Positions 5,327-33,202 of a stretch of 64,000 nt of DNA are shown in pieces; positions within the stretch are counted from its first letter, which is position 1, and every line of letters begins with the position of its first letter. Source of the stretch: Oscillospiraceae bacterium. GTDB lineage: Bacteria; Bacillota; Clostridia; Oscillospirales; CAG-272. The notes under the pieces were generated by a model that had not been told where the DNA came from, did not search any database, and worked only from the letters and a program-made list of their open reading frames with translations. The translations under genes were made by a program, and so were the position numbers. The stretch is taken from contig SVTP01000003.1 in NCBI GenBank assembly GCA_015063725.1, forward strand, positions 23,194-87,193. The letters run 5' to 3'.

Positions 5327-5363
5327 TGGTGACTGTAACTCCTTTGTTGAAAATTTTGGGAAA

Positions 5364-18473: not shown

Positions 18474-18500
18474 ATAAAAAAGAGCCCTTCGCAGGGCTCT
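18474..18500 (-). terminator. rho-independent terminator closing the Leu-T-box operon
   Basis: The minus-strand RNA reads AGAGCCCU-gcga-AGGGCUCU followed by UUUUUAUCUG, directly after the 18507 stop. Confidence 0.7.
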
Positions 18501-18506
18501 TGTGTT

Positions 18507-19325: not shown

Positions 19326-21833
19326 TCATCCTTTTTTCAGTCCCAGCTTTTCAACGGCATCCTCGCGCATTTTGTACTTGAGGATCTTGCCTGCGGCATT
19401 CATTGGGAACTTGTCAACAAAATCAACGTATCTGGGCACCTTGTGGCGCGCCATACTTGCGGCTACAAAGTCTTTCATCTCCTGCTCGGTCATGCTCTCG
19501 CCATCTTTGAGGATGATACAAGCCATAATTTCCTCACCGTATTTTTCGTCGGGAACGCCGATGACCTGCACGTCGCTGACCTTGGGACAGGTGTAGATAA
19601 ATTCTTCGATCTCTTTGGGATAAATGTTTTCACCGCCGCGAATGATCATATCCTTGAGGCGCCCCGTAATGCGGTAGTTGCCGTCATCATCACGGCAAGC
19701 AAGGTCTCCTGTGTGGAGCCAACCGTCGGCATCAATGGCAGACGCGGTCGCCTGCGGCATTTTGTAATATCCCTTCATAATGTTGTATCCACGCGCCACA
19801 AACTCACCGTTGACACCGTTGGGACAGTCCTCGCCCGTTTCGGGATCGATGATCTTGCACTCAACGTTTGCAAAAACACTGCCTACGGTTTCGGTGCGGA
19901 CCTCCAACGAGTCATAATAGGAGCTCATCGTGCATCCGGGAGAGGCTTCGGTCTGACCGTAAACCGAGACGATCTCTTTCATATTCATAACCTCGGTTGC
20001 CTTTTTCATCAGGTCGGCAGGACAGTTGGAGCCTGCCATAATACCGATGCGCATATAGGAGAAATCGGTTGCGGCAAAGTCGGGATGCTCCATCATTGCA
20101 ATGAACATGGTGGGCACGCCGTTAAAGGCGGTGATGTGCTCGTTGTGCACGCAAGCCAGCGCGGGCTTGGGTGAAAAGTACGGCAGCGGCATCATGGTAG
20201 CGCCGTGCGTCATCGATGCGGTCATTGAAAGAACCATACCAAAGCAGTGGAACATGGGAACTTGGATCATCATGCGGTCAGCGGTGGAAAGGTCCATATG
20301 GTCGCCAATGTATTTGCCGTTGTTGACGACGTTGTAGTGTGTCAGCATAACGCCCTTGGGAAATCCAGTAGTGCCCGAGGTGTATTGCATGTTGCAAACG
20401 TCATCCTTATTGACAGCGGCTGCCATGCGGTAGACCTCGCTGACGGGTACCTGTGCGGCACGCTCAACGGCTTCATTCCAATCCATACATCCCTTTTGTC
20501 TGAAGCCAACGGTAATAACGTTGCGCAAAAACGGCAGGCGCTTGCTATGCAGAGCAGCGCCCGGCTTGAGCCTTGCCAATTCGGGGCAAAGCTCGGCAAT
20601 GATCTTGCCGTAGTGCGTATCCTTGGATCCCTCGGTCAAAATCAGGGTGTGTGTGTCGGATTGCTTGAGCAGATATTCTGCCTCGTGAATTTTATAAGCG
20701 GTATTGACAGTGACAAGCACGGCACCGAGCTTTACGGTTGCCCAAAAAGCAATGTACCATTGCGGCACGTTGGATGCCCAAACGGCGACATGGGAGCCTG
20801 CCTTGACGCCCAGCGCGATCAGGGAGCGCGCAAATTCGTCTACGTCATCGCGGAATTCGCTATACGTGCGCGTATAGTCGAGCGTGGTGTATTTGAAAGC
20901 GTATTGATCGGGAAATTCCTCGACCATGCGGTCAAGCACCTGCGAGAAGGTTGCATCGATCAAGAGATCCTTCTTCCAAACATACTTACCCGTATGTGCG
21001 CGGTTGTAATACAAGGTCTTTTCATTGCGTGAGGGATCGCTGAACTGGCTCATAAAGCCGACAAACTGCGAGAAGATGATCTCCATATCATCAAGCTCCT
21101 CACACCAGGCGGGATCCCAGACAAGGGAGAGGAAGCCGTCATAGTTGACGGAGCGCAAAGCAAGCATCATATCCTTGATAGGCAATTCTCCCTCACCAAG
21201 CAGACAGTATTCAATGCTATCCCCTGCTCTTTTTGCATCGTTGATATGCACGTGGCGAACGTACGCACCAAGATTTTTGATGATCTGCTCGGGACTCTCT
21301 CCTCCCTCAAAATATGCAGCGGAAAGATTCCAAAGAGATGCAAAGTAATCACTGGCAAAGCTATCCAACATCGCGCGTAGCTTTTCGGTCTTTGCAAAAA
21401 GTCCTGCCGTCTCCATCAAAAGCGAAATGCCGCGGCTCTCTGCCTCGGGCAGGAGTTCTGCAATCACTGCCTCTGTGTTGGTAAGTGCACTCTCCTCGTC
21501 CTCTGCGGCATTGGCGCGAATGCGAATGTTGGGGATATGCAAATTGGATGCGATCTCCATGCACTTGCGAATTTCGGCAATGCAGGCATCCTTTTCGTTC
21601 TTGTCAGACGGATTGCAGATGGCATCGATGCACGGAATGCGCAGCTTCTTTTCGTAGAGACGGCGAATGGTGGATGCGGCGGCGTAATTATAGAAGGCAC
21701 CGTCTTTATCAGCAAACAGGCTGTTTTTTATGTTGTGAAGCTCAATGCCCCCAAAGCCCATTGCCGTGGCGATGTCGCAAAAATCTTCAAAGGTGTGGCC
21801 GTGCCAGCCCTTTGTTGAAAAGGAAAATTTCAT
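19326..21833 (-). CDS. fusion protein: xylose-isomerase-like TIM barrel + AMP-forming acyl-CoA ligase
   Basis: 835 aa. The first roughly 270 aa resemble sugar-phosphate isomerase/epimerase TIM barrels (GFGGIELHN, HVHINDA). The remainder is an adenylate-forming ligase (YTSGTTGFPKGVMLTH, YGQTE, TGDLACRDDDGNYRITGRLKDMIIRGGENIYP). Confidence 0.8.
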   Translation of the reverse strand: MKFSFSTKGWHGHTFEDFCDIATAMGFGGIELHNIKNSLFADKDGAFYNYAAASTIRRLYEKKLRIPCIDAICNPSDKNEKDACIAEIRKCMEIASNLHIPNIRIRANAAEDEESALTNTEAVIAELLPEAESRGISLLMETAGLFAKTEKLRAMLDSFASDYFASLWNLSAAYFEGGESPEQIIKNLGAYVRHVHINDAKRAGDSIEYCLLGEGELPIKDMMLALRSVNYDGFLSLVWDPAWCEELDDMEIIFSQFVGFMSQFSDPSRNEKTLYYNRAHTGKYVWKKDLLIDATFSQVLDRMVEEFPDQYAFKYTTLDYTRTYSEFRDDVDEFARSLIALGVKAGSHVAVWASNVPQWYIAFWATVKLGAVLVTVNTAYKIHEAEYLLKQSDTHTLILTEGSKDTHYGKIIAELCPELARLKPGAALHSKRLPFLRNVITVGFRQKGCMDWNEAVERAAQVPVSEVYRMAAAVNKDDVCNMQYTSGTTGFPKGVMLTHYNVVNNGKYIGDHMDLSTADRMMIQVPMFHCFGMVLSMTASMTHGATMMPLPYFSPKPALACVHNEHITAFNGVPTMFIAMMEHPDFAATDFSYMRIGIMAGSNCPADLMKKATEVMNMKEIVSVYGQTEASPGCTMSSYYDSLEVRTETVGSVFANVECKIIDPETGEDCPNGVNGEFVARGYNIMKGYYKMPQATASAIDADGWLHTGDLACRDDDGNYRITGRLKDMIIRGGENIYPKEIEEFIYTCPKVSDVQVIGVPDEKYGEEIMACIILKDGESMTEQEMKDFVAASMARHKVPRYVDFVDKFPMNAAGKILKYKMREDAVEKLGLKKG

Positions 21834-23215
21834 TGCGCGGCCTCCTCGTAAACGATCTTGTTAACGGCGTTGATATAGGCACGGATGCCTGCACCGATGA
21901 TGTCGGTGGAAATACCGTTGCCCGAATAGAGCTTTCCGTCGGAGCGAAGCTTAACGAGCGCCGAGCCCATAGCTTCTGTACCCTCGGTAACGGCTTGGAT
22001 CTGGAAATCATCCAACTCATAACGGTAGCCGATGATCTGCTCGATGGCAGAAAATGCGGCATCAATTGGACCGTCGCCAATGCAAATGCCCGTCAGATCC
22101 TTTCCGTCCTTGCGCAGCGTGATCTGCGCACTTGTGGAAATGATATTGCCGCTGTTGACAACGTAATTGACAAGCTCATACGTGGGCGGAACCTGCAATG
22201 CCACGCTTGCAACGATGGCTTCCAGCTCCTTTGCCCCTACCTTCTTTTTGGCGGCTACGCGTAAAAATTCTTGATAAACAAGAGATTTATCTTCTTCGGA
22301 AAGATCGTACCCCAGCTTTGCAACGGCTGTAGCTACGGTGTCCTTATCGTCGTTGGCATCCAGATGGATGGGTTCGTCGTCGGGAGTGGCAGAAGTGATG
22401 CTTCCCTTTGCGCTCTTGACGTTATCCAGCACCCAGCCGATCTGCTTTACCGTACGATGAAGCTCGGTATAGCGGATATCGGAATAAAAGCCGTAGCGGT
22501 TGCCGCAATTTTTGACCATGGCGGCAAAGCTCTCAAGCGAAACACCTGCCTCGCCTACGGCTGTTTTAACACCCGATGCGCCTGCGCGGATCGCCATAAT
22601 AGCATTCGCACAAGCCATACTGTTTTGATTGGAACAACGAACGTTGACGGGAACGTTGATATTCTCGGCAATCTTCTTCACGAAATCTGCAAAATCATCG
22701 GGGAGCATTTCTCCTGCATCATCGCAAAGAGTAACCTCACAAGCACCTGCCGCAATAGCGGTGTTGATAACAGAAGCAAGGAATGCAGGCTCTGCACGGG
22801 AAGCATCCAAAGCGCAAAACTCAACCGAGGAGCACTGCTCTTTTGCAAAGGTGACGATCTTCTCTACCCATGCAATCATCTTATCGGGCTTTTTGTGGCA
22901 AACGTACTCCATGCTGACAGGAGAGGTGGGCAGCTCAATGCGAATGCGCGGATAGAGTGCGGTAGAAAGTGCCGCTTTTGCATTTTCGACGCTCTCAACC
23001 GTCATACCTGCCGCCACGGAGATGGTGCTCTTTTTAACAAAGGTCGAAATCGTTTTGATCAGCAGTGTATCAATGCGCACGTTTTGAATTTCGGGCAGCT
23101 CGATAATGTCCCCATCCAGCTTTTCAAGCTGACGGGCGATATCGATCTTTTCTTTAAAGCTAAAGGCATTGTCTGCTCGGCAAAGCGTAGCGTCTGCAAT
23201 TCTGATTCTTTTCAT
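21830..23215 (-). CDS. 2-isopropylmalate synthase homolog with degenerate catalytic motifs
   Basis: 461 aa with a DRE-TIM-like N-terminal half and a LeuA-type C-terminal regulatory domain (GDGPIDAAFSAIEQI, IQAVTEGTEAMG, GISTDIIGAGIRAY). The TLRDGEQ motif is replaced by TLCRADN, and HxH(D) by RCSNQ. Confidence 0.8.
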   Translation of the reverse strand: MKRIRIADATLCRADNAFSFKEKIDIARQLEKLDGDIIELPEIQNVRIDTLLIKTISTFVKKSTISVAAGMTVESVENAKAALSTALYPRIRIELPTSPVSMEYVCHKKPDKMIAWVEKIVTFAKEQCSSVEFCALDASRAEPAFLASVINTAIAAGACEVTLCDDAGEMLPDDFADFVKKIAENINVPVNVRCSNQNSMACANAIMAIRAGASGVKTAVGEAGVSLESFAAMVKNCGNRYGFYSDIRYTELHRTVKQIGWVLDNVKSAKGSITSATPDDEPIHLDANDDKDTVATAVAKLGYDLSEEDKSLVYQEFLRVAAKKKVGAKELEAIVASVALQVPPTYELVNYVVNSGNIISTSAQITLRKDGKDLTGICIGDGPIDAAFSAIEQIIGYRYELDDFQIQAVTEGTEAMGSALVKLRSDGKLYSGNGISTDIIGAGIRAYINAVNKIVYEEAAQ

Positions 23216-23255: not shown

Positions 23256-23530
23256 TCAAAAGTCCCCGAGACGGATGCATAATCCACCTCGGGGACGAAT
23301 GTTCTCATTCGCGGTACCACCCCGGTTACCGAACAAGTCGGTCACCTCAAAGGCTCAGGCAAGCCCTATGCTATGATAACGGTGCATGCCGTGACCGCTT
23401 ACTAAAGGTTCTGCGGTCCTGCTCCGGAACGAGACTTTCTTCTCTTTCGGTAACGGCTCACACCAAGCGCCGCCTCTCTGAAACCGATATGGGAGAAAAA
23501 ATAATTCCTTCAACGCATTTCAAAAAAATA
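23256..23530 (-). promoter_or_regulatory. T-box riboswitch leader, specifier read as CUC (Leu)
   Basis: On the minus strand: a K-turn (GUUGAA/GGA), an AGAGAG bulge, a CGGC-GCUUGGUGUGA-GCCG distal loop, the T-box core CCGGGGUGGUACCGCG (23310-23325) and a terminator GUCCCCGAG...CUCGGGGAC+UUUU (23258-23297). The specifier CUC-G lies at 23430-23433. Confidence 0.8.
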
Positions 23531-23536
23531 TGCTTT

Positions 23537-23565
23537 ATTATACCATTTACAATGGTATTTGTCAA
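23537..23565 (-). promoter_or_regulatory. sigma-A promoter of the Leu T-box unit
   Basis: TTGACA (23560-23565), a 17-nt spacer, then TATAAT (23537-23542). Confidence 0.6.
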
Positions 23566-23587
23566 GGTTTTTTTGAAATTTTTTCAA

Positions 23588-24658
23588 TTATTTTTCAATG
23601 GGATATGTCCAGCCGTAAGTGTCCTCGATTTTGCCCCATTGAATGCCTGTCAAGGTATCGTACAGATGTTGGGTAACGGTACCGATCTTGCCACCGTTAA
23701 CGGGATATTGTACGCCCTTGTAGCAAAGCTCGCCAATGGGAGAGACAACTGCAGCAGTTCCGCAGCCCCATGCTTCCTCAAGTGTGCCATTTTCAAGCGC
23801 TTCGGAAAGCTCACCGATAGAGAGCAGACGCTCGCTGACCTTGTAGCCCTCGCCCTTGAGAACCTCGATGCAGGATTTGCGCGTGATACCGGGCAGAATG
23901 GAGCCGGTCAGAGCGGGCGTGACGATCTCGCCGTTGATCTTGAACATAACGTTCATAGCGCCGACTTCTTCGATATACTTGCGTTCCACACCGTCAAGCC
24001 ACAAAACCTGAGAGTATCCCTTTTGTGCGGCTCTCTCACCGGCTCTGTTACTTGCGGCATAGTTACCGCCGCATTTTGCATAACCTGTACCGCCTCTGAC
24101 AGCACGAACATCCTCGTCCTCGATCATGATGCGAACGGGATTGATGCCCTCTTTGTAGTAGCTTCCTACGGGAGAAGCGATGATAACAAAGGTTGCGTTG
24201 TGAACTGCGTGAACACCCAAGGTCTCATCGTTTCCAAACAGGAACGGACGCAGATAAAGCGAGGTTCCGGGAGCGGACGGTGTCCAGTCCTGCTCCATTT
24301 CCACAAAGGTCAAAAGAGCCTGAAGCATATCTTCCTCGGGCATTTGCGGCAGGCACAAACGCTCGGCAGAGTTGTTCATGCGGCGAATGTTCTCCAAAGG
24401 GCGGAAGAGCTGAACCTTGCCGTCGGCACGGCGGTAAGCTTTCAGTCCTTCAAAGATCTCGGAGCCATAGTGCAGAACGGTGGATGCAGGATGGAGAGAA
24501 ATGTTTGCAAAAGGCACGATGCGCGCATTGTGCCAACCCATCTCGTGGGAATAGTCCGCCATAAACATATGGTCGGTAAAGATCTTGCCAAAGCCAAGCG
24601 TAGAAGGATCCGGCTTTGCCTTGGGAGCATCACATTTTGTAATGGAAATATTGAGCAT
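23588..24658 (-). CDS. ilvE: branched-chain amino acid aminotransferase
   Basis: 356 aa with FGKIFTDHMF, ASTVLHYGSEIFEGLKAYR, the PLP-Lys context, GTGYAKCGGNYA and PGITRKS. Confidence 0.9.
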   Translation of the reverse strand: MLNISITKCDAPKAKPDPSTLGFGKIFTDHMFMADYSHEMGWHNARIVPFANISLHPASTVLHYGSEIFEGLKAYRRADGKVQLFRPLENIRRMNNSAERLCLPQMPEEDMLQALLTFVEMEQDWTPSAPGTSLYLRPFLFGNDETLGVHAVHNATFVIIASPVGSYYKEGINPVRIMIEDEDVRAVRGGTGYAKCGGNYAASNRAGERAAQKGYSQVLWLDGVERKYIEEVGAMNVMFKINGEIVTPALTGSILPGITRKSCIEVLKGEGYKVSERLLSIGELSEALENGTLEEAWGCGTAAVVSPIGELCYKGVQYPVNGGKIGTVTQHLYDTLTGIQWGKIEDTYGWTYPIEK

Positions 24659-24685
24659 AGTACTTCCCCTTTCTGCAATTTGTTA

Positions 24686-25219
24686 TCAGTTTTCGGCACC
24701 GATGCGCATAGCGCCAAGATTGATCTCCAGCATGTCGGCACGCTTTGCGGAGATAACTTTTTTCAGTGCAGCGGTGATGTTTTCTTCGTTATAGTCGCCA
24801 ATTTCCTTGAGAACCTTGCCAACAATGATCATATTTGCCAGCGTGGGAGTTCCGTTATCGCTTGCCAGCTGCGTTGCAGGAATGTAGAATACCTGAACGT
24901 CATCGCGTGCGACCTTGCGCTCAATGAGCGTGGAGTCCGCAAAGATCATACCGCCGGGCACAACGGTCGATTCAAACTTATCAAGAGAAGGCAGATTCAT
25001 GGCGATCAGGATATCGGGATTGGAAACGATAGGAGAACCAACAGGCTCATCGCTCACGATGACACTGCAGCTTGCAGTACCGCCGCGCATTTCGGGACCG
25101 TAGGACGGAAGCCAGCTGACCTGTTTATCTTCCATCAAGCCCTTGTATGCAATAAATTTACCGGCAAACAGAATGCCCTGTCCGCCAAAGCCGGAAAACA
25201 GCATTTGCTTTGTACTCAT
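24686..25219 (-). CDS. 2-oxoacid:ferredoxin oxidoreductase, gamma subunit
   Basis: 177 aa with [14 protein letters not shown], typical of the gamma subunit. It has an ATGA overlap with the beta gene. Confidence 0.85.
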
Positions 25220-25974
25220 TTTGCCGATTCCTCCTTTGCACTTCTATCCTTATAGACACCCAAGGGATAGTACGGAATCATCTTTTCGTCAATCCATTGG
25301 AGAGCCTTCTGAGGTGTCATACCCCAGTTGGTGGGACAGGTGGAAAGGACCTCTACCAGAGAAAAGCCCTTGCCATCAATTTGGTTTTGGAATGCCTTTT
25401 TGATCGCCTTTTTGGCGTTATTTACGTTCTTTACATTGTTGACCGTTACGCGAGCAAGATACTCGGGGCCTTCCAATTCAGAGAGCATTTCGCACACGCG
25501 GATCGGGAAACCGCAGTGATTGGTGTCACGTCCGTAAGGAGAGGTCTGTGTTACCTGTCCGGGCAGCGACGTAGGTGCCATCTGACCGCCGGTCATGCCG
25601 TAAATTGCGTTGTTGATAAAGATAATGGTGATGTTTTCGTTTCTTGCAGCGGCATGAACAGTCTCCGCCATACCGATGGATGCGAGGTCACCGTCACCCT
25701 GATAGGTGAACACGATGTGCTCCTCGGGATTTGCGCGTTTTACACCGGTGGCAACTGCAGGGGCTCTGCCGTGTGCCGCCTCGATCATATCACAGTTAAA
25801 ATAGTTATAAGCCATAACCGAGCAACCAACGGGAGCAATACCGATGGTTCTGCCTTCGATACCAAGCTCGTCAATGACCTCGGCTACCAGACGGTGAATG
25901 ATGCCGTGGGTGCAGCCGGGACAATAGTGAAAAGGTGCATCGGTCAGGGCGTGGGGCTTTTTGAATACAACCAT
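25216..25974 (-). CDS. 2-oxoacid:ferredoxin oxidoreductase, beta (TPP-binding) subunit
   Basis: MVVFKKPHALTDAPFHYCPGCTHG... and GDGDLASIG (the TPP/Mg motif). I chose the ATG at 25974, which overlaps the alpha stop as TAATG. Confidence 0.85.
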   Translation of the reverse strand: MVVFKKPHALTDAPFHYCPGCTHGIIHRLVAEVIDELGIEGRTIGIAPVGCSVMAYNYFNCDMIEAAHGRAPAVATGVKRANPEEHIVFTYQGDGDLASIGMAETVHAAARNENITIIFINNAIYGMTGGQMAPTSLPGQVTQTSPYGRDTNHCGFPIRVCEMLSELEGPEYLARVTVNNVKNVNNAKKAIKKAFQNQIDGKGFSLVEVLSTCPTNWGMTPQKALQWIDEKMIPYYPLGVYKDRSAKEESAK

Positions 25975-27050
25975 TAGTTTTCTCCTCCTTTCGCGGCTTT
26001 TTTGATCGCTTCGAGTACTTGCTCGGGGGACGGAATCATACCGCCTGCACGATTGCAAAGCGTTACAGGCTTTTTGCATTCGGTTGCAAGGCGTACATCC
26101 TCAATCATCTGTCCCATAGAAAGCTCAACAGAAATAAAGCTGTTGACCTTATCCGCAGCGCGACGGAAAACTTCCTTCGGGAAGGGCCAGAGCGTGATGG
26201 GACGGATCATGCCGACCTTAATTCCCTGTTTTCTTGCCTCGTTGATGGCGTTTTTGGATACGCGAGCGGCAATACCGAAGGCGGCAATGCAGATCTCGGC
26301 ATCGTCCATCATGTATTCCTCGTACAGAACCTCGTTTTCCTCGATGTAGCGGTAACGCTCATAGCGAGCAAAGTTGAACTGCTCAAGCTCCTCGGGAACG
26401 AGAGAGAGCGAATTGACAATGTTGTGGGGACGTTGCATTTTGGTGCCTGTGATTGCCCAAGGCTTTTCGGGAGCGGGCTTGACAACAAGATCATCAAGTG
26501 CCACGGGCTCCATCATCTGTCCCATGGTGCCGTCTGCCAAAATCATAGCGGTCATGCGGTAGGTGTCGGCAAGCTCAAAGCCCTTAACGGTCAGCTCTGC
26601 CATCTCTTGAACAGATGCAGGTGCGAGAACGATCATACGGAAGTCACCGTGACCGCCTGCCTTGGTTGCTTGGAAATAGTCGGATTGGCTGGGTTGAATG
26701 CCGCCAAGACCGGGACCGCCGCGTTGAACGTTGACAACGAGTGCAGGCAGATCAGAGCCTGCAAGGTAAGAAAGACCTTCGCTCTTGAGTGCGATTCCGG
26801 GACTGGAGGAAGAGGTCATAACGCGGTATCCCGTAGATGCTACGCCATAAACCATATTGATAGCCGCGATCTCGCTTTCGGCTTGCAGGAAGGTACCGCC
26901 AATCTTGGGCATCTTTTTTGCCATATAAGCCGCGATCTCGGTTTGAGGGGTGATGGGATAGCCAAAATAATGTCTGCAGCCTGCGTGAATTGCAGCCTCG
27001 GCAATGGCTTCGTTGCCTTTCATCAATACTTTATCTGCCATTTTGATCAC
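25974..27050 (-). CDS. 2-oxoacid:ferredoxin oxidoreductase, alpha subunit
   Basis: 358 aa with MKGNEAIAEAAIHAGCRHYFGYPITPQTEI and QAESEIAAINM. Confidence 0.85.
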   Translation of the reverse strand: MIKMADKVLMKGNEAIAEAAIHAGCRHYFGYPITPQTEIAAYMAKKMPKIGGTFLQAESEIAAINMVYGVASTGYRVMTSSSSPGIALKSEGLSYLAGSDLPALVVNVQRGGPGLGGIQPSQSDYFQATKAGGHGDFRMIVLAPASVQEMAELTVKGFELADTYRMTAMILADGTMGQMMEPVALDDLVVKPAPEKPWAITGTKMQRPHNIVNSLSLVPEELEQFNFARYERYRYIEENEVLYEEYMMDDAEICIAAFGIAARVSKNAINEARKQGIKVGMIRPITLWPFPKEVFRRAADKVNSFISVELSMGQMIEDVRLATECKKPVTLCNRAGGMIPSPEQVLEAIKKAAKGGEN

Positions 27051-27253
27051 CTCTCAACAGTAATAATGCAGTCGGGACACATCGTTGCACAGAAAGCACA
27101 GCCGATGCAAGCATCGGGGTTTTCTGCCTCTACGGGGTGATGTCCCTTTTTGTTGATCTTATCGGGTGCCAGACGAAGCACCTTTTTGGGGCAAGCGTCT
27201 ACACACAGACCGCAGCCCTTGCATTTATCGGTCAAAAACGTTAATTTTGCCAT
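27047..27253 (-). CDS. 2-oxoacid:ferredoxin oxidoreductase, delta (2x[4Fe-4S] ferredoxin) subunit
   Basis: 68 aa, MAKLTFLTDKCKGCGLCVDACP...CIGCAFCATMCP. It has an AAGGAG RBS and its stop has an ATGA overlap with the alpha start. Confidence 0.8.
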   Translation of the reverse strand: MAKLTFLTDKCKGCGLCVDACPKKVLRLAPDKINKKGHHPVEAENPDACIGCAFCATMCPDCIITVER

Positions 27254-27287
27254 TTTTATGTACTCCTTTGGGTAGGATTTAAAACAG

Positions 27288-27950
27288 TTACTGAATCTTT
27301 TTTTGCAGTTCAAGTGGGAAAAGATCAGGAATCTTCCCTTCCAGCTCACACTGCAGTTTTTGGTCTGCCGTTGTCATAACGACGGGCAAGCCCGACATAG
27401 CCGCCACCTCGTTGGCATAGGATACCGACCGAAGCACGTCCTCGGCAGTGGTCTCCACTCCGAGATTGGAGTTGTTGACCAATGCGGTAAATCGCATACC
27501 GCACGCGGTCTCGATCTCACGCATTACCTCAAGGGTGGATATCGCATCGCGCGTTAAGGGGCGGTAGCAGTTGATCACCATCAGCATTTCGTAATCATTC
27601 TCCGCCAAAATAGCGGGAGCGAGTCTGCCAAGCACCAAAGCACCGCGGTCGTCACCGCCCACGTCGATGATGGCGCGCATGCGGCGGTCATCGGTCAGGG
27701 CGTAGAGGTCGGGCGGAAGTGCGGGAATATCGACGTTGCTGTTTGCATAGTTGGAGCAAATGAGTCGAATGCCCGCCTCTTCCAGCTCGGCGGCACTGTC
27801 CTTGGAACGAAAATAAGGATTGACGATGTCAAGGTCGGCAAGCGTTACGGTTGGGTATTCCCTCTTGATGGCTTGTGCCAGATTGACGGCAATGTTGGTT
27901 TTGCCGCTGCCGTAATGTCCGCACAAGAGCAAAACGCGTTTGTTCATCAT
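27288..27950 (-). CDS. P-loop NTPase of unknown role (MinD/CooC/GPN-like layout)
   Basis: 220 aa with a deviant Walker A (LLCGHYGSGKTN), LADLDIVNPYF and a Walker-B-like IIDVGGDD. Its start overlaps the ligase stop as ATGA. Confidence 0.6.
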   Translation of the reverse strand: MMNKRVLLLCGHYGSGKTNIAVNLAQAIKREYPTVTLADLDIVNPYFRSKDSAAELEEAGIRLICSNYANSNVDIPALPPDLYALTDDRRMRAIIDVGGDDRGALVLGRLAPAILAENDYEMLMVINCYRPLTRDAISTLEVMREIETACGMRFTALVNNSNLGVETTAEDVLRSVSYANEVAAMSGLPVVMTTADQKLQCELEGKIPDLFPLELQKKIQ

Positions 27951-30235
27951 AGCTTGTTCCTCTGAATTTTTCCGCTTGTTGTCTTGGGCAATTCATCGCA
28001 GAAGACCACAAGACGGGGGTATTTGTAGGGAGCGGTGTGCTCCTTAACGTAGGTTTGAATTTCTTTTTTGAGTTCCTCTGTGGGTTCTGTTCCCTTGGTA
28101 AGAACAATGGATGCCTTGACGATCTGTCCTCTTACCTCATCGGGAGCGGCGGAAACGCCGCACTCAAGAACGTAAGGCAGCTCCATAATAACGCTCTCAA
28201 TTTCAAAGGGACCAATGCGGTAGCCCGAGGACTTGATGACGTCATCGGCACGTCCTACGTACCAATAGAAGCCGTCCTCATCGCGCCAAGCAACGTCGCC
28301 GGTGTGGTAGTAACCGTCGTGCCAGACCTCTGCGGTCTTTTCCGCGTCGCGATAGTAGCCTGTAAAGAGTCCGCAAGGCGCTCCGTTTTTGACGTTGACA
28401 ACGATCTCACCGCTCTCACCAACAGAAACGGGATTGCCGTCGGCGTCCACAAGAGAAACATCATAAATCGGTGCGGGCTTACCCATAGAGCCGATCTTAT
28501 GCGGTGCACCGATCATATTACCGATGATCATGGTGCTCTCGGTCTGTCCAAAGCCTTCGAGAATTTGCAGTCCCGTTGCCTTTTCAAACTGGCGGTAGAC
28601 CTCGGGGTTGAGTGCTTCGCCCGCCGTTGTCATGTGCTTGACGGAAGAAAGATCGTATTTGGAAATGTCTTGCTTGATCATCATGCGCAGCATTGTGGGC
28701 GGCGCGCAGAAGGTTGTGATGTTGTATTTTGCAAACATCGGCAAGATCTCGGCAGCATCAAAGCGGTCAAAGTCGTAAACAAAGGTTGCCGCCTCACACA
28801 GCCACTGACCGTAGAGCTTTCCCCACATTGCCTTTGCCCAGCCCGTATCCGAGATGGTAAAATGTAAGCCGTTGGGATCGGCATTGTGCCAATATTTTGC
28901 GGTATGGAAGTGTCCGAGTGCGTACTTGTAATTGTGCGCCGCGATCTTGGGGTATCCTGTGGTTCCCGAAGTAAAGAACATCAGCATCAGATCGTCACCG
29001 CCGGGTGCATCCTCGCCTCGGTTGTAGTGCGAGCTGTAAAGCGTGTATTCTTCATCAAAGCTTCTCCAGCCCTCTCTTGTGCCGCCAACGATCAAGAAAT
29101 TCTTGAGCTCGGGACAGGTTTTTGCTGCGAGTTCGATTTGATGTGCGGTGTTGCCATCGGCAGTACAAAGAACCGTATTGATGCCTGCGGCTTGGAAGCG
29201 GTATTCAAAGTCATGCTCCTGCAACTGATTGGGAGCGGGGATGGCAATAGCACCAAGCTTGTTCAAGCCAAGCATAGCAAACCAGAACTGATAGTGGCGC
29301 TTGAGAACGAGCATGACGCGATCGCCCTTTTTGATGCCCAGCGACTTGAAATAGTTGGCACACTGTGCCGATGCTTTTTTGATATCCTTAAAGGTAAATC
29401 TTCGCTCGGTCTTATCCCCTGCAATGTGCAGCATTGCCAGCTTTTGCGGTTCTTTATCGGCAAGAGCATCCACAAGATCGAATGCAAAGTTAAAGTTTTC
29501 GATATTTTTAAATTGGATGGATGTAGGAGTTCCGTTTTCGTCTTCTTCAACGTCAATAAACTGTTGATAGATGCGCTCCTTGGTATCCTTTTGAATGGTG
29601 GCAGTTCCCCGCACGAGCTTTGCGGGCGTCAATTCGGGAATGGGCTCACCCGTAGGATTGAGCACGATCGCATAGAATTCGCAATCCTGACCGTCAACGG
29701 CAATCATACCGTGCGGAGCGCTACTGTCATAATAGATGCTGTCGCCTGCGCGCAGAACCTCTTTGTGCGAGCCGACCTGCACCATCAGGCTACCCGAGAT
29801 GACGATGTCGATCTCCTGACCTGCGTGTGTAGTCAGCTCGATATCCTTGTGTAGTGCTTCTTCGTTGTATTCACTGCGAACAAGCAAGGGCTCGGCAATT
29901 CGGTTTTGGAACGCGTATGCCAGGTTGTAGTAGGTCATGCCGTGTGCCTGCTCAATACGCTGTCCCGCGCCGTTTCGAGTGACCGTGTAGGACTTGAGCT
30001 TGGGGCTGACACCGTCGATGATGTCGGTAACGTTGACGCCAAAAGCCAATGCACAACGGTAGATAAACGCAAAGTTGAGGTCACTCTGCCCGTTTTCGCA
30101 CGCCAAGTATTCTTCAATCGTAACGTCGGTTTTTGCCGCCATCTCCTCGGGAGTATAGCGTGTAATTTCGCGCAACTCTCGAATACGCTCTGCCATCTCT
30201 CGGATCTTGAAATCCAATCCGCTCATTTGTTTCAT
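27947..30235 (-). CDS. HTH(XRE)-cupin fused to an AMP-forming short/medium-chain acyl-CoA synthetase (paralog B)
   Basis: 762 aa from the ATG at 30235, with a GGAGAG RBS. The N-terminus has an HTH (ITRYTPEEMAAKTDVTIEEY) and a cupin (HAGQEIDIVISG...HGM). The ligase part carries FFTSGTTGYPK, GFGQTE, TGDVAWRDEDGFYWYVGRADDVIKSSGYRIGPFE and SGKIQR. The ORF-track start at 30328 lies inside the T-box core and is rejected. Confidence 0.85.
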   Translation of the reverse strand: MKQMSGLDFKIREMAERIRELREITRYTPEEMAAKTDVTIEEYLACENGQSDLNFAFIYRCALAFGVNVTDIIDGVSPKLKSYTVTRNGAGQRIEQAHGMTYYNLAYAFQNRIAEPLLVRSEYNEEALHKDIELTTHAGQEIDIVISGSLMVQVGSHKEVLRAGDSIYYDSSAPHGMIAVDGQDCEFYAIVLNPTGEPIPELTPAKLVRGTATIQKDTKERIYQQFIDVEEDENGTPTSIQFKNIENFNFAFDLVDALADKEPQKLAMLHIAGDKTERRFTFKDIKKASAQCANYFKSLGIKKGDRVMLVLKRHYQFWFAMLGLNKLGAIAIPAPNQLQEHDFEYRFQAAGINTVLCTADGNTAHQIELAAKTCPELKNFLIVGGTREGWRSFDEEYTLYSSHYNRGEDAPGGDDLMLMFFTSGTTGYPKIAAHNYKYALGHFHTAKYWHNADPNGLHFTISDTGWAKAMWGKLYGQWLCEAATFVYDFDRFDAAEILPMFAKYNITTFCAPPTMLRMMIKQDISKYDLSSVKHMTTAGEALNPEVYRQFEKATGLQILEGFGQTESTMIIGNMIGAPHKIGSMGKPAPIYDVSLVDADGNPVSVGESGEIVVNVKNGAPCGLFTGYYRDAEKTAEVWHDGYYHTGDVAWRDEDGFYWYVGRADDVIKSSGYRIGPFEIESVIMELPYVLECGVSAAPDEVRGQIVKASIVLTKGTEPTEELKKEIQTYVKEHTAPYKYPRLVVFCDELPKTTSGKIQRNKL

Positions 30236-30263
30236 GTTTTCTCTCCGTTTCTTGCCCGGGAAC

Positions 30264-30540
30264 CAAAAATGCACTCGTCCCAAGCGAAAATAACCTTGAG
30301 ACGAGTGCAATAACACCCGCGGTACCACTCAAATTGCGACAAAGTCGCCACTCTTGGAGCCTGACAGCTCCTATGCATTAACGCAGCAATCACGGAAGGG
30401 TTCTACTGGAGCGTGCTCGTTCTTCCCTTCGGCTCGGAAGCTACAAATGCCGGTAAAGTCCAATGGCTTGCACCAAACGCCATCTCTCTGCAAAGACCTG
30501 TTTCCAACATCCTCTTCGTCAGTGCCTTTCTAAATTATAA
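30264..30540 (-). promoter_or_regulatory. T-box riboswitch leader, specifier read as GUA (Val)
   Basis: Stem I has a K-turn (CUGAC/CGA), a GAAG/CUUC lower helix, an AGAGAG bulge and an AUGGC-GUUUGGUGCAA-GCCAU distal loop. The T-box core is AAUUUGAGUGGUACCGCGGG (30316-30335) and the terminator is GCACUCGUC...GACGAGUGC+AUUUUUG (30264-30308). The specifier GUA-G lies at 30441-30444. Confidence 0.8.
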
Positions 30541-30543
30541 AGT

Positions 30544-30572
30544 ATTGTATCACACTTTTGGTTATTTGTCAA
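30544..30572 (-). promoter_or_regulatory. sigma-A promoter of the Val T-box operon
   Basis: TTGACA (30567-30572), a 17-nt spacer, then TACAAT (30544-30549). Confidence 0.6.
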
Positions 30573-30611
30573 TAGATTTTATAATATTTCCAATATTATA
30601 TATTGGCAATA

Positions 30612-32879
30612 TCAAAGTTTATTTCTCTGAATCTTGCCGCTGATGGTTTTGGGCAGTTCATCGCGGAAAACAACCACGCGGGGGTATTTGTAGGGCGCGG
30701 TATGCTCTTTGACATAAGTTTGAATCTCTTTTTTGAGCTCTTCGGTGGGTTCTGTTCCCTTTGTAAGAACAATAGACGCCTTGACAATCTGTCCTCTGAC
30801 CTCGTCGGGCATAGCGGATACACCGCACTCGAGAACGTAAGGCAGCTCCATAATAACGCTTTCGATCTCAAAGGGACCGATGCGGTAGCCGGAGGACTTG
30901 ATAACGTCATCTACGCGACCAACGTACCAATAGAAACCGTCCTCATCGCGCCAAGCGGTGTCACCCGTATGATACATACCGTCATGCCAAACCTCGGCGG
31001 TCTTTTCTTCGTTCTTGTAGTATCCCGCAAAGAGTCCGCAAGGAACCTTTTTGTCGGTACGGACAACGATCTCACCAACCTCACCAACCGCTACGGGATT
31101 GCCGTCGGGATCAACGATATCAACGTCATAAAGCGGAATAGGCTTACCCATGGAGCCGAGCTTGTGCGTGCCGCCAATCAGATTTGCAATGGTGAGCGTC
31201 AGCTCGGTCTGCCCAAAGCCTTCCATGATCTGTAGTCCCGTTGCCTTTTCAAACTGACGGTAAACCTCGGGGTTGAGTGCTTCGCCCGCGGTGGTCATAT
31301 GCTTGATGGAAGAAAGATCGTATTTGGAGATGTCTTCCTTGATCATCATGCGCAGCATCGTGGGGGGCGCACAGAAGGTGGTGATATTGTATTTTGCAAA
31401 CATGGGAAGGATATCCGCTGCCGAGAAGCGGTCAAAGTCATAGGTAAAGACCGCGCCCTCACACAGCCACTGACCGTAGAGCTTGCCCCAAAGTGCCTTG
31501 CCCCATCCTGTTTCGGAAATGGTAAAGTGGAGACTGCCGTCACTGACGCCGTGCCAATGCTTGGCGGTAACAAAGTGACCGAGCGGATATTTGTAGGTAT
31601 GCGCTGCAATTTTGGGATACCCTGTGGTTCCCGATGTAAAGAACATCAACATCAGATCGTCACCACAGGGGGTGTCATCAGTACGATAGAAGTGCGTGCT
31701 GTAAAGACCGAATTCCTCGTCAAAGTCTCTCCAGCCGTCGCGCTTGCCGCCAACGAGAACCTTGGTGGTGAGCACCGGGCACTTCTGTTGTGCAAGGTCA
31801 ACCTGATGGGCAACATCACCGTCGGCTGTGCAGATGATCGCACTAACGTCGGCTGCTTCAAAGCGGTATTCAAAGTCATGCGCCTGCAGCTGATTGGTCG
31901 CGGGAATAACGATAGCACCCAGCTTGTGCAAGCCGAGAATTGCGAACCAGAACTGATAGTGGCGCTTGAGAACGAGCATGACACGGTCGCCCTTTTTGAT
32001 GCCCATGGATTTGAAATAGTTTGCGCACTGTGCCGAGGCGCGTTTCATATCGTTAAAGGTAAAGCGACGCTCGGTCTTATCGTTTGCAATGTGGATCATG
32101 GCAAGCTTGTCGGGTTCCTTTTGTGCAATGGCATCCACAACATCAAAGCCAAAGTTGAATTTGTCCTCATCGTGGAAATCGATGGACTGCAACAGACCGT
32201 TTTCGTCCTCGACTGTGGAGATAAAACGGTCGCAGACCAACTCTCTCTTTGGGGTACGCATGGGGATCAGTGTATCTCTGATCACGTCCTCTTTTTCGTT
32301 CTCACCGGGCAAAACAACTGCCACAAATAGGCAATCCTCGCCATCGATTGCGATCATACCGTGAGGGGTGGAGCTGTTGTAATAAATACTGTCACCCTCA
32401 CCGAGATACTCGACGTTATCGCCAACCTGCACCTTGAGCTTGCCTTTGAGTACCATGTCAAACTCCTGCCCGGAGTGCTTTGTCAGGTGGATGGGACGGT
32501 TTTGCAGATCGGGGTTATATTCGTAGCGAACCCAATAGGGCTCAGCCAGCTTTTTGCGGAACATGGGGGCTAAGTTGGAAATCTCAATGCCATCCTCTTT
32601 TGCCGTTTGCTGTCCCTGACCACGGCGCGTGACCGTGTAGGACGAAAGATGCGCACTGCGGCCTTCCAAAAGGTCGGTCATGCCAATGCCAAACGCCTGC
32701 GCACATTTATAAATAAAGGTAAACGGAAAATCCAACTCACCGCTTTCATACCTGCAGTACTCGGCAACCGATACCTCGGTCTTCTCTGCCATGGTTTCAA
32801 CGCTGAAATCAAAAATTTCACGCATTTCGCGAATTCGAAGCGCAACCTCCTGCAAAGTGTTAGATGATAAGTTCGACAT
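30612..32879 (-). CDS. HTH(XRE)-cupin fused to an AMP-forming short/medium-chain acyl-CoA synthetase (paralog A)
   Basis: 755 aa from the ATG at 32879, with an AGGAGG RBS. It has the same architecture as 27947-30235, and the ligase half is nearly identical (FFTSGTTGYPKIAAH, ILPMFAKYNITTFCAPPTMLRMMIK, GYRIGPFEIESVIMELPYVLECGVSA). The ORF-track start at 32963 lies inside the T-box and is rejected. Confidence 0.85.
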   Translation of the reverse strand: MSNLSSNTLQEVALRIREMREIFDFSVETMAEKTEVSVAEYCRYESGELDFPFTFIYKCAQAFGIGMTDLLEGRSAHLSSYTVTRRGQGQQTAKEDGIEISNLAPMFRKKLAEPYWVRYEYNPDLQNRPIHLTKHSGQEFDMVLKGKLKVQVGDNVEYLGEGDSIYYNSSTPHGMIAIDGEDCLFVAVVLPGENEKEDVIRDTLIPMRTPKRELVCDRFISTVEDENGLLQSIDFHDEDKFNFGFDVVDAIAQKEPDKLAMIHIANDKTERRFTFNDMKRASAQCANYFKSMGIKKGDRVMLVLKRHYQFWFAILGLHKLGAIVIPATNQLQAHDFEYRFEAADVSAIICTADGDVAHQVDLAQQKCPVLTTKVLVGGKRDGWRDFDEEFGLYSTHFYRTDDTPCGDDLMLMFFTSGTTGYPKIAAHTYKYPLGHFVTAKHWHGVSDGSLHFTISETGWGKALWGKLYGQWLCEGAVFTYDFDRFSAADILPMFAKYNITTFCAPPTMLRMMIKEDISKYDLSSIKHMTTAGEALNPEVYRQFEKATGLQIMEGFGQTELTLTIANLIGGTHKLGSMGKPIPLYDVDIVDPDGNPVAVGEVGEIVVRTDKKVPCGLFAGYYKNEEKTAEVWHDGMYHTGDTAWRDEDGFYWYVGRVDDVIKSSGYRIGPFEIESVIMELPYVLECGVSAMPDEVRGQIVKASIVLTKGTEPTEELKKEIQTYVKEHTAPYKYPRVVVFRDELPKTISGKIQRNKL

Positions 32880-32895: not shown

Positions 32896-33170
32896 TCAAA
32901 AAATAAAACACCCGTCTCAATTCTTTGAGACGGGTGTGAAAATACACTCGCGGTACCACTCAAATTGCGACATTGTCGCCACTCTTGGAATCAAACAATT
33001 CCTATGCCTTGACGCAGCAATCACGGGAAATTCTACTTGAACACAGTCTTTCGAACATCCGGCTCGGAAGTGATGGGTCTTGAGTAACTTTGTCATCGGT
33101 TCACACCAACACCGACTCTCTGCGGGCATCCTTATTCGACCTTCTTCGTCATCGCCTTTTTCAAATTACG
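32896..33170 (-). promoter_or_regulatory. T-box riboswitch leader, specifier read as AUC (Ile)
   Basis: Stem I reads GGC-GAUGAC-GAAG...CUUC-CGA-GCC, with an AGAGAG bulge and a GUCGGU-GUUGGUGUGA-ACCGAU distal loop. The T-box core is AAUUUGAGUGGUACCGCG (32948-32965) and the terminator is ACACCCGUCUC...GAGACGGGUGU+UUUAUUUUUU (32896-32937). The specifier AUC-A lies at 33071-33074. Confidence 0.8.
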
Positions 33171-33173: not shown

Positions 33174-33202
33174 AGTATACCACACAAAAAAGTGTTTGTC
33201 AA
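33174..33202 (-). promoter_or_regulatory. sigma-A promoter of the Ile T-box unit
   Basis: TTGACA (33197-33202), a 17-nt spacer, then TATACT (33174-33179). Confidence 0.6.

Follow-up and report, generated by a model that had tools for sequence, protein, structure and literature searches.

A tRNA-responsive gene array for predicted isoacid-to-amino-acid salvage in an Oscillospiraceae bacterium

Closest described systems

The chemistry by which isoacids become branched-chain amino acids goes back about 60 years; their reductive carboxylation in rumen and gut anaerobes was reportedly described by Allison, Bryant, and Peel in the 1960s-70s. A route named "L-isoleucine biosynthesis V, from 2-methylbutanoate" is listed in MetaCyc. 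For the rumen, it is accepted that isovalerate is carboxylated and then aminated to leucine (PMC7356843). The classical route resembles the one proposed here in CoA activation, ferredoxin-dependent carboxylation, transamination, and habitat, but it was established by physiology and enzymology. Our literature search turned up no account of a dedicated gene cluster, tRNA-dependent control, or branch-specific ligases for isoacid carboxylation. The pathway itself is classical. What appears to be undescribed is the three-branch cluster gated by tRNA, together with the fusions of sensor and ligase, the dead LeuA, and the P-loop family linked to VOR.

Known counterparts of the 2-oxoacid:ferredoxin oxidoreductase (OFOR) encoded here include archaeal VOR (2-ketoisovalerate:ferredoxin oxidoreductase) from Pyrococcus/Thermococcus and, in Methanothermobacter, a VOR that works anabolically; we take the NCBIfam models PRK08366 and PRK11864 to represent archaeal VOR. 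Like the archaeal enzymes, the OFOR has four subunits, TPP and [4Fe-4S] cofactors, and a matching set of domains. It differs in being a member of the bacterial family PRK07119 ("VorB"), nearer KOR/OOR-type enzymes, and in the P-loop gene that lies next to it in strict linkage. Control of amino acid supply by T-boxes is exemplified by the B. subtilis ilv-leu operon, which has a Leu (CUC) T-box. The array resembles it in riboswitch class, transcription attenuation, and specifier logic, and likewise places supply genes under the control of uncharged tRNA, which induces them. In contrast to ilv-leu, which encodes the acetolactate pathway, the array would control an OFOR salvage route through three leaders of different specificity.

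S. aureus MbcS, a methylbutyryl-CoA synthetase, activates isobutyrate and 2-methylbutyrate and hardly any isovalerate (PMC10026030). This selectivity mirrors the split between the Ile and Val units and the Leu unit of the array, and the different ligase class in the Leu unit fits it. Compared with MbcS, the two HTH-cupin ligases score 435 to 440 bits against an equivalog cut-off of 850, add an N-terminal HTH-cupin module of ~215 aa, and have amino acids rather than fatty acid primers as their proposed output.

Architecture of the three T-box units

The window, the whole 64-kb stretch of DNA analyzed, carries the array at 18.5-33.2 kb, with all features on the minus strand. Three units were found, with unit A directly upstream and unit C directly downstream of unit B. 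There are no terminators between the three serial leaders besides the leaders' own, and an intrinsic terminator (18480..18501, a 9-bp stem then TTTTTATC) ends the whole array. Specifier codons AUC, GUA, and CUC were read from covariance-model alignments of leaders A, B, and C, respectively; they are also the codons of the B. subtilis ileS, valS, and leuS T-boxes. Leaders A and B score under the gathering score (93) of the Rfam T-box model RF00230, and a whole-window scan at that threshold did not list leader B. No ilvBHCD or leuABCD genes were found within the 64-kb window.

Unit A begins with a promoter (33174..33202; TTGACA-17-TATACT with a TG extension) that matches 11 of 12 hexamer positions and is conserved 5' of orthologous leaders. 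T-box leader A (32923..33161; 89.2 bits, E 4.3e-20) has the Ile specifier AUC at 33074..33072 and a terminator at 32908..32937 (-22.4 kcal/mol, z -7.2). It precedes acsI (30612..32879), which encodes an AMP-forming acyl-CoA ligase with HTH_19/HTH_3, Cupin_2, AMP-binding, and AMP-binding_C domains, proposed to act on 2-methylbutyrate; its best NCBIfam family is MbcS (440 bits).

Unit B consists of a promoter, a Val T-box, and seven tightly packed genes. The initial annotation had proposed a single promoter and a T-box with specifier GUA before these genes, and both were recovered: the promoter (30544..30572; TTGACA-17-TACAAT with a TG extension) has a consensus sequence and ranks within the top four promoter matches over 16 kb, and leader B (30294..30531) matches RF00230 with 85.8 bits (E 3.2e-19). 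Its Stem I has GUA at 30444..30442, the codon position of the covariance model, with a purine next; the leader carries the T-box sequence AAUUUGAGUGGUACCGCG and a terminator (30270..30309; -26 kcal/mol, z -9.4) with AUUUUU after the stem. The description of a single T-box holds for unit B and fails for the region, which has further T-boxes at 32923..33161 and 23288..23522. An identity of 71% between leaders A and B indicates that leader and ligase were duplicated together; the two ligases are paralogues with 69% identity.

The unit B ligase gene, acsV (27947..30235), encodes HTH_19, Cupin_2, AMP-binding, and AMP-binding_C domains, with MbcS (435 bits) again the best NCBIfam family. The enzyme is AMP-forming, every catalytic motif is intact, and isobutyrate is its proposed substrate. 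Proteins 100% identical to it occur in public MAGs under the name "cupin domain-containing protein." The 793-aa reading frame initially assigned to it was rejected, since that longer ORF opens within the leader terminator, and the start is ATG 30235. The GW motif is reported by Ingram-Smith and colleagues (in 2006) to line the acyl pocket. The motif reads GWGKALWG in AcsI and GWAKAMWG in AcsV, and Ile- and Val-type ligases differ at the invariant residue right after its conserved Trp, which is Gly in 39 of 39 Ile-type and Ala in 45 of 45 Val-type sequences.

Domains and family scores bore out the remaining gene list of unit B: a P-loop protein, OFOR delta, alpha, beta, and gamma subunits, and ilvE. 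The delta subunit (27047..27253) is a 2x[4Fe-4S] ferredoxin-like protein with two CxxCxxCxxxCP motifs in its translation. The alpha subunit (25974..27041; POR_N and PFOR_II domains) matches NF005507 VorB with 547.5 bits (cut-off 399), the runner-up family lying 233 bits below; its translation more likely starts at ATG 27041, where there is a ribosome-binding site (GAGAGGTG) and where the public annotation also begins the protein (355 aa). Against the archaeal VOR model PRK08366 it reaches 79 bits (cut-off 646), and its closest solved chains are the alpha subunits of P. furiosus 2-keto acid:Fd oxidoreductase and OGOR. The beta subunit (25216..25974) is TPP-binding (TPP_enzyme_C) and matches the KOR, OFOR, and VOR beta families sub-threshold only, 2-oxoglutarate enzymes being best; the gamma subunit (24686..25219) has a POR domain (117 bits). 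For beta, gamma, and delta alike, the best sub-threshold matches are 2-oxoglutarate or generic families. As the OFOR is not orthologous to characterized archaeal VORs, its predicted branched-chain specificity rests on the curated name and genomic context. The last gene, ilvE (23588..24658), encodes a class IV branched-chain amino acid aminotransferase (TIGR01123, 399 bits, cut-off 250; NF009897, 473 bits, cut-off 307). Overlaps previously described as ATGA or TAATG were found as such at 27950/27947 and 25219/25216 (ATGA) and at 25976..25972 (TAATG), but the junction at 27050/27047 is GTGA. Gaps of 34 nt separate the P-loop and delta genes and 27 nt the gamma gene and ilvE.

Unit C has a promoter matching all 12 hexamer positions (23537..23565; TTGACA-17-TATAAT with a TG extension) and a T-box leader (23288..23522; 122.5 bits, exceeding the gathering score of 93) with the Leu specifier CUC at 23433..23431 and a terminator at 23262..23296 (-25.6 kcal/mol). 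The first gene (21830..23215) encodes a LeuA-like protein that, like LeuA (2-isopropylmalate synthase), has an HMGL-like barrel and an intact LeuA_dimer domain, the leucine-binding allosteric domain (116 and 106 bits). Unlike LeuA, it has no catalytic motifs: it scores under every LeuA cut-off, HCHND of LeuA aligns with RCSNQ, and the metal-binding and catalytic motifs of LeuA are absent from 40 of 40 LeuA-like sequences examined. Judged by these residues, the protein is a catalytically dead pseudoenzyme, and we propose it as a leucine sensor. Its stop codon is overlapped as ATGA by the start of a gene (19326..21833) for a fusion of a xylose-isomerase-like TIM barrel (AP_endonuc_2) and an AMP-forming acyl-CoA ligase (AMP-binding; PRK12583, 670 bits), a candidate isovalerate-CoA ligase. 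The two genes are always paired (40 loci). The last gene of unit C (18507..19319) encodes an Amidohydro_2 family protein and lies 3' of the TIM-barrel-ligase gene in at least 16 loci.

Conservation, proposed route, and direction

Relatives were compared using 80 related loci/genomes from gut and rumen Clostridia; many contigs are cut, and the co-occurrence counts are lower bounds. The ligase was present in at least 70 of the 80 loci, ilvE in at least 60, and ligase, VOR, and ilvE together in at least 55. Ligase, P-loop protein, VOR, and IlvE stay together across loci despite changing gene order. Pairing of codon to gene is also conserved across dozens of species: the specifier is ATC in 37 of 40 leaders orthologous to A, GTA or GTC in 36 of 41 orthologous to B, and CTC or CTG in 21 of 26 orthologous to C. 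In a sister clade these genes occur with no T-box at all.

Three features point to acid-to-amino-acid salvage by reductive carboxylation: the AMP-forming type of the ligases, their MbcS-like family, and the predicted induction by uncharged tRNA. We consider it very likely that the cluster converts 2-methylbutyrate, isobutyrate, and isovalerate to Ile, Val, and Leu, respectively, inferring substrates and OFOR direction from sequence and context. AcsI, AcsV, and the TIM-barrel-ligase fusion, each AMP-forming, would activate these three acids in turn; the shared four-subunit OFOR would combine acyl-CoA, CO2, and reduced ferredoxin into 2-oxo acids; and IlvE would transaminate them to Ile, Val, and Leu. 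As every ligase has a separate promoter and a T-box for the cognate uncharged tRNA, a branch would open when its amino acid is scarce. Branch-specific ligand sensing may be the task of the HTH-cupin modules and of the dead LeuA. The initial annotation had read the middle third of the array as a valine route; its anabolic reading stands, but the route was incomplete, as the OFOR and IlvE are most likely common to all three branches. The VOR operon lies behind an Ile T-box at five loci of other species, which fits an enzyme serving more than one branch. In the source genome, the genes for VOR and IlvE lie behind the Val leader. Since they are gated by one of three tRNAs, the model does not account for their induction when Ile alone or Leu alone runs short.

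The anabolic direction is suggested by ligase type, flanking units, pairing, gene content, and VorB annotation, and every computational test run agrees with it and none contradicts it. OFORs are reversible and gene content alone leaves direction unfixed, so the same genes could in principle ferment branched-chain amino acids: IlvE would deaminate, the OFOR would decarboxylate oxidatively, and reversed AMP-forming ligases would free the acid and conserve energy. AMP-forming ligases do run in reverse in a few syntrophs, and gut Clostridia make isoacids from branched-chain amino acids, according to published abstracts. However, induction by uncharged tRNA would then break down the very amino acid that is scarce, disposal needs no three separate branch-specific ligases, the loci lack both an ADP-forming acyl-CoA synthetase and a phosphotransacylase/kinase pair, and MbcS, the nearest characterized ligase, works in uptake and activation. 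Of the readings weighed here, we hold this one the least probable.

Improbable, though less so, is that the ligases mainly feed branched acyl-CoA primers to membrane fatty acid synthesis while VOR and IlvE balance 2-oxo acid and acyl-CoA pools. MbcS, the closest curated family, was shown to supply such primers (PMC10026030), but the ligase scores far under its equivalog cut-off (435 vs 850 bits), control is by tRNA charging and not a lipid signal, co-location with ilvE and OFOR is obligatory in at least 55 of 80 loci, and no fab genes were seen at the loci in a non-exhaustive search. The sub-threshold affinities of beta, gamma, and delta and the generic and OGOR-type nearest alpha structures would suit a general or 2-oxoglutarate/pyruvate enzyme merely co-transcribed in a mixed operon with no shared pathway. 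Such an arrangement is very unlikely given the VorB match of alpha; moreover, the P-loop-VOR block keeps ligases and ilvE through several rearrangements across ~80 species, and only Val or Ile T-boxes precede it among resolved cases.

The VOR-linked P-loop protein

The second gene of unit B (27288..27950) encodes a P-loop NTPase of the SIMIBI class, publicly annotated as "hypothetical protein," with Walker A GHYGSGKT and the motifs DLDIVNPYFR and DVGGDD. No Pfam or NCBIfam family scores over its cut-off. SIMIBI NTPases such as ATPase-type HypB, Mrp/MinD, CooC, and SRP54/FtsY assist metalloenzymes or targeting. The P-loop protein resembles them in predicted fold, in the signature Lys of its Walker A, and in having conserved Asp motifs; the predicted structure (pLDDT 90) has SRP54/FtsY and ATPase-type HypB as its best folds, at a TM of ~0.55. 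Unlike these relatives, the family has no Cys/His metal motif, motif conservation among homologues revealing no conserved Cys or His, and is defined by VOR linkage alone. It may act as a VOR assembly or gating factor. Homologues form 2296 clusters at E<=1e-3, and the gene adjoins vorD in 79 of the 80 related loci.

T-box leaders and genes of the three units

Three gene units (A, B, and C), each behind its own T-box leader, occupy the minus strand between 18.5 and 33.2 kb of the window. A whole-window Rfam scan identified leader C (23288..23522, minus strand) at 122.5 bits, above the gathering score of 93 bits for the T-box family RF00230. This sole match lies downstream of ilvE, and the T-box that the initial annotation had assigned to unit B was considered as possibly misplaced; targeted scans overturned this view and revealed two further leaders. 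Leader B (30294..30531, minus strand; 85.8 bits, E = 3.2e-19) is a full-length match ahead of the unit B ligase, where it had been proposed, and leader A (32923..33161, minus strand; 89.2 bits, E = 4.3e-20) precedes unit A; both span model positions 1-219 and score below the gathering score of 93 bits. The specifier codons, as positioned by covariance-model alignment, read AUC (Ile) at 33074..33072 in leader A, GUA (Val, as originally assigned) at 30444..30442 in leader B, and CUC (Leu) at 23433..23431 in leader C, all on the minus strand. Each is followed by a purine (AUC+A, GUA+G, and CUC+G, respectively) and then by the 3' strand of the specifier-loop closing helix.

All three leaders carry the T-box sequence AGUGGUACCGCG or GGUGGUACCGCG, that is, (A/G)GUGGUACCGCG, with its UGGN bulge. 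Their terminator hairpins have predicted energies of -22 to -26 kcal/mol (z-scores of -5.7 to -9.4) and are followed by a U tract, and the terminator 5' arms overlap the antiterminator 3' strand, making the two structures mutually exclusive. Minimum free energy folding of Stem I alone gave no signal (z about 0), unsurprisingly for a structure with many non-canonical motifs. Each leader has its own near-consensus promoter with an extended -10 element, and these three promoters were within the top four promoter matches of 16 kb. Leaders A and B are 71% identical, whereas either is about 53% identical to leader C, indicating that leader and ligase were duplicated together and that specifier and pocket diverged afterwards.

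Unit A consists of a single gene (30612..32879, minus strand), acsI, encoding a protein with HTH, Cupin_2, and AMP-binding ligase domains. Unit B contains the seven genes originally described, all on the minus strand: acsV (27947..30235), which encodes a ligase 69% identical to its unit A paralog; a gene for a 220-aa P-loop protein (27288..27950); the delta (27047..27253), alpha (25974..27041), beta (25216..25974), and gamma (24686..25219) subunits of a 2-oxoacid:ferredoxin oxidoreductase (OFOR); and the aminotransferase gene ilvE (23588..24658). The gene junctions first reported were largely correct, with ATGA at 27950/27947 and 25219/25216 and TAATG at 25976..25972, but the sequence at 27050/27047 is GTGA. 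A better start for the alpha subunit is the ATG at 27041, which follows the ribosome-binding site GAGAGGTG and is also used in the public annotation; searching for an exact copy of the protein begun at the GTG returned no contig. Unit C, likewise on the minus strand, encodes a LeuA-like protein (21830..23215), an AMP-forming ligase fused to a xylose-isomerase-like TIM barrel (19326..21833), and an Amidohydro_2 protein (18507..19319), and an intrinsic terminator follows on the same strand at 18480..18501. A public metagenome-assembled genome assigned to Ruminococcaceae/Oscillospiraceae contains proteins identical to those of the window, and in it the P-loop and LeuA-like proteins are labeled "hypothetical protein" and the alpha subunit is labeled "VorB."

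No intrinsic terminator was found between unit A and the unit B promoter (30573..30611), where only an A/U hairpin of -9.7 kcal/mol without a U tract is present, and none was seen between unit B and the unit C promoter (23566..23587). An upstream unit is thus ended, conditionally, by the terminator of the leader that follows it. In many species, the promoter of the Val unit begins 10-40 nt past the stop codon of the upstream ligase. Given this proximity and the lack of terminators between units, the T-box leaders probably act as serial gates on read-through transcripts.

Ligases, oxidoreductase, and associated proteins

The products of acsI and acsV, proposed to be 2-methylbutyrate and isobutyrate ligases, respectively, both have AMP-binding and AMP-binding_C domains, and their translations contain FTSGTTGYPK, GFGQTE, YHTGD, and PKTTSGKIQR. 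Judged by the ANL core motifs TSGTTGxPK, GQTE, HTGD, and a catalytic Lys near the C-terminus, the motif set of AMP-forming ligases is complete in all three ligases of the array, the 835-aa TIM-barrel fusion carrying the corresponding set. The best NCBIfam family for both HTH-cupin ligases was MbcS (NF047394), at 435.5 and 439.6 bits; neither reached the equivalog cut-off of 850 bits, and they are thus relatives rather than equivalogs. MbcS activates isobutyrate and 2-methylbutyrate but acts very poorly on isovalerate (PMC10026030). In the array, MbcS-like ligases lie behind the Ile and Val leaders, whereas a ligase of another class (PRK12583-like, 670 bits) lies behind the Leu leader.

Only two positions of the ligase domain separated 39 Ile-type from 45 Val-type ligases. 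One of the two comes immediately after the GW-motif Trp, which is conserved, and was Gly in 39/39 Ile-type enzymes and Ala in 45/45 Val-type enzymes. This motif reportedly lines the acyl pocket of acetyl-CoA synthetase, according to work by Ingram-Smith et al. from 2006, and the smaller residue after the pocket Trp (Gly) would accommodate the bulkier acid. Of the twelve residues that separate the two types across about 84 sequences, ten fall in the HTH-cupin module (protein positions 11-117), which suggests that this module also discriminates between branches and that the sensor part diverged with the branch. No conserved operator for the HTH domain was found in about 100 aligned promoter regions, where conservation was limited to the promoter hexamers and an upstream A/T-rich stretch.

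The LeuA-like protein retains an HMGL-like barrel and the leucine-binding allosteric LeuA_dimer domain. Its best score as LeuA was 274.7 bits, against a curated cut-off of 532. The LeuA motif HCHND aligns to RCSNQ, and GERAGN and HSSGIHQDG are deleted; HxH is replaced and RDGEQ is not kept. The metal-binding and catalytic motifs (RDGEQ and HxH) were present in none of 40 sequences (the window protein and 39 orthologs, compared with an E. coli reference sequence). The protein is a conserved pseudoenzyme. Its gene is always paired with that of the TIM-barrel-ligase, in 40 loci, and the protein could plausibly serve as a leucine sensor for this ligase.

The four OFOR subunits are encoded together, with POR_N and PFOR_II domains in alpha, a TPP-binding domain in beta, a POR domain in gamma, and two [4Fe-4S] sites in delta, the translation of which contains two CxxCxxCxxxCP motifs. 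The alpha subunit scored 547.5 bits against NF005507 ("VorB"; cut-off 399) and is therefore a member of this curated VOR family. The beta subunit was below the cut-off of every curated family, and the best scores of beta, gamma, and delta, all below threshold, were with 2-oxoglutarate or generic families. By its scores against models of biochemically characterized archaeal VOR (79 bits for PRK08366, cut-off 646; 66 bits for PRK11864, cut-off 405), the enzyme is not an ortholog of these. Because the alpha subunit has its closest solved counterparts in a generic Pyrococcus enzyme and in 2-oxoglutarate synthases (OGOR), we infer branched-chain specificity of the OFOR (hereafter VOR, encoded by vorDABG) from the curated name and the genomic context. 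The ilvE product passed the cut-offs of both NF009897 (473 bits, cut-off 307) and TIGR01123 (399 bits, cut-off 250).

Invariant features of the P-loop protein are a Walker A motif with the signature Lys (GHYGSGKT), D39/D41, and D96-G98-G99, along with the motifs DLDIVNPYFR and DVGGDD; no Cys or His is conserved in the family. The family comprises 2,296 clusters (50% identity, E <= 1e-3) and has no Pfam or NCBIfam assignment, a match to Pfam CbiA being below the cut-off. A profile search against the PDB returned only N-terminal Walker A matches. The AlphaFold model (pLDDT 90) matched SRP54/FtsY and ATPase-type HypB with E-values of 1e-7 and TM-scores of 0.5-0.58, which places the predicted structure among SIMIBI-class P-loop NTPases, a likeness at class level only. 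With low confidence, we suggest that the protein helps to assemble or gate the oxidoreductase.

Conservation and codon-to-gene pairing

Related loci were collected by scanning one genome per species with a profile of the P-loop family, which returned at least 596 candidate stretches, and the best 80 were kept (identified as L0xx below). All 80 are from gut or rumen Clostridia (Acutalibacteraceae, Oscillospiraceae, Christensenellaceae, Ruminococcus sp., and Erysipelotrichaceae bacterium NK3D112), the last being a rumen isolate and thus a cultured carrier (L062). Gene counts, obtained by tblastn with the proteins of the window, are lower bounds, as many contigs end inside the cluster. The P-loop gene lies directly upstream of vorD in 79 of the 80 loci. 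An HTH-cupin ligase is present in at least 70 and ilvE in at least 60; at least 55 have a ligase together with VOR and ilvE, and at least 34 also have the LeuA-like protein and the TIM-ligase. Gene order varies, being leuA-like, TIM-ligase, ilvE, P-loop, vorDABG, and ligase in L040, L046, L050, L055, and L058. Constant membership with changing order is a standard signature of functional coupling.

A specifier rule derived from three Rfam alignments (codon, purine, 4-nt strand, one nucleotide, and GAG, with the 4-nt strand pairing with the 4 nt after a 5' UGA) was run on every T-box-like site of the 80 loci. ATC was read at 37 of 40 sites with an acsI-type ligase downstream and GTA or GTC at 36 of 41 with an acsV-type ligase downstream, the codon not being readable in the other five. 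Where a leuA-like gene followed, the codon was CTC or CTG (21 of 26 sites).

In species with a single ligase (L030, L064, L065, and L074), an Ile leader drives the ligase, the P-loop gene, vorDABG, and, where the contig reaches, ilvE. Similarly, an Ile T-box in L044 (98.8 bits with Rfam) drives ilvE, the P-loop gene, vorDABG, and the ligase. Control of the shared enzymes thus lies with Val in most species and with Ile in others, which fits an OFOR and a transaminase working for more than a single branch. VOR and IlvE are gated by only one of the three tRNAs in any one genome; their rise under Ile-only or Leu-only starvation could possibly come from basal read-through or from further genomic copies.

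Several loci depart from this arrangement. In L023, a T-box (9697-9945; 73 bits) lies directly upstream of the P-loop gene, vorDABG, and ilvE, with an apparent codon of GCA followed by U, in a provisional register; GCA matches none of the three branched-chain amino acids. In L026, ilvE and the leuA-like gene are separated by 5 kb of inserted, unrelated genes, which encode a LysR regulator, a Na/Pi transporter, and GATase and PGA_cap proteins. No T-box was found in the gap upstream of the P-loop gene in L036. A sister clade (L040:4560-4985, L046, L050:730-1150, L055, L056, and L058) has the same genes, in the leuA-like-first order given above, but no T-box. The region upstream of its leuA-like gene has no Rfam match and contains a consensus promoter, a palindrome, (A)CTTATAGTGCATAAG(T), at about +1, and a second hairpin, GCATATTCCGTCAGGAAATGC. 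The window lacks this palindrome, which might be an operator, possibly one for the HTH-cupin ligase, or else mark an unknown leader.

Probable direction of the proposed route and other genes of the window

The initial annotation interpreted unit B as a route from acid to amino acid. The anabolic reading is supported by the T-box control, the AMP-forming ligases, and the codon pairing; its scope, limited to unit B, was too narrow. T-boxes turn genes on when the cognate tRNA is uncharged, and a catabolic operon regulated in this way would break down the amino acid that is in short supply. All three ligases are of the AMP-forming, activating type that spends ATP, and the ADP-forming or phosphotransacylase/kinase systems of fermentative acid production are absent here. 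The anabolic direction is further favored by the match between MbcS selectivity and the leader/ligase architecture, the Gly/Ala split between Ile- and Val-type ligases, the co-duplication of leaders A and B with their ligases, and the family assignments of the alpha subunit and IlvE. Classical work by Allison and colleagues reportedly addressed the conversion of isoacids to amino acids in the rumen. The chemistry is accepted rumen biochemistry, with carboxylation of isovalerate and amination to leucine stated in PMC7356843, which also favors this direction. No ilv or leu biosynthesis genes (ilvBHCD and leuABCD) were found among 40 further ORFs of the 64-kb window, the part of the genome covered here.

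The isoacids isobutyrate, 2-methylbutyrate, and isovalerate have been recognized as growth factors for fiber-degrading rumen bacteria since the 1960s; they are marketed as feed additives, and in the human gut their presence indicates protein fermentation. To our knowledge, the genes that consume them have so far been poorly defined. We tentatively propose, as a joint reading that we consider possible but rather unlikely, that the cluster underlies the classical growth-factor effect of isoacids in many gut and rumen Clostridia that form a large group, with a second, protein-level control layer of branch-specific ligand sensors and a new SIMIBI NTPase family as an obligatory partner of the oxidoreductase. 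In such a control layer, each branch-specific ligase would carry or partner with its own ligand sensor, namely the HTH-cupin module in the Ile and Val branches and, in the Leu branch, the dead LeuA, whose leucine-binding domain is intact; we know of no description of a layer of this kind. The NTPase would be needed to assemble the oxidoreductase or, alternatively, to power or gate reductive carboxylation, which is uphill.

Taken singly, the pathway, the T-box mechanism, OFORs, and IlvE are well known. No published T-box-controlled cluster of ligase, VOR, and IlvE was found in the literature searched, which took in a minority of subscription journals; PMC4880562 and PMC11304471 turned out not to bear on the subject. 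We likewise found no description of an OFOR-based salvage route as a T-box regulon, which extends the known T-box repertoire, of three leaders of different specificity in series with a ligase each, or of a riboswitch and enzyme that were duplicated as a pair and then diverged, the one in its codon and the other in its pocket. The same applies to three uncharacterized families of proteins linked with the route (the HTH-cupin-ligase fusion, the dead LeuA with its TIM-barrel-ligase, and the VOR-linked P-loop protein), which are now in a strong functional context. The cluster provides a searchable gene set for isoacid use, with the T-box codon as a built-in read-out of function, and opens a long-standing question, which genes act in isoacid use, to direct testing. 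With it, metagenomic surveys could tell isoacid consumers from producers, and the cluster would explain cross-feeding of branched-chain amino acid carbon.

Other features of the window were also recorded. The long ORFs at 80..2599 (839 aa), 53369..54406 (345 aa), and 61719..63389 (556 aa) had no Pfam match at E <= 1e-5. A proline biosynthesis cluster (48021..50873) encodes pyrroline-5-carboxylate reductase, an aldehyde-dehydrogenase-family protein that is probably glutamate-5-semialdehyde dehydrogenase, and an amino acid kinase; no T-box there reached the gathering threshold. Just downstream of the array, a gene for a sigma-70 family (ECF-type) factor is followed by one for a DUF4367 protein (16167..17511), likely a sigma/anti-sigma pair, and the promoter ahead of the sigma-70 gene (17566..17538) matches the consensus at 12/12 positions. 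A tyrosine recombinase/phage-integrase family gene (55925..56929, plus strand) lies among housekeeping genes. At 2428..5837, a [FeFe]-hydrogenase-like gene (4043..5326, with a C-terminal "FeS" domain) adjoins a PHP-domain gene and two HATPase_c genes, an arrangement that resembles a sensory hydrogenase module.
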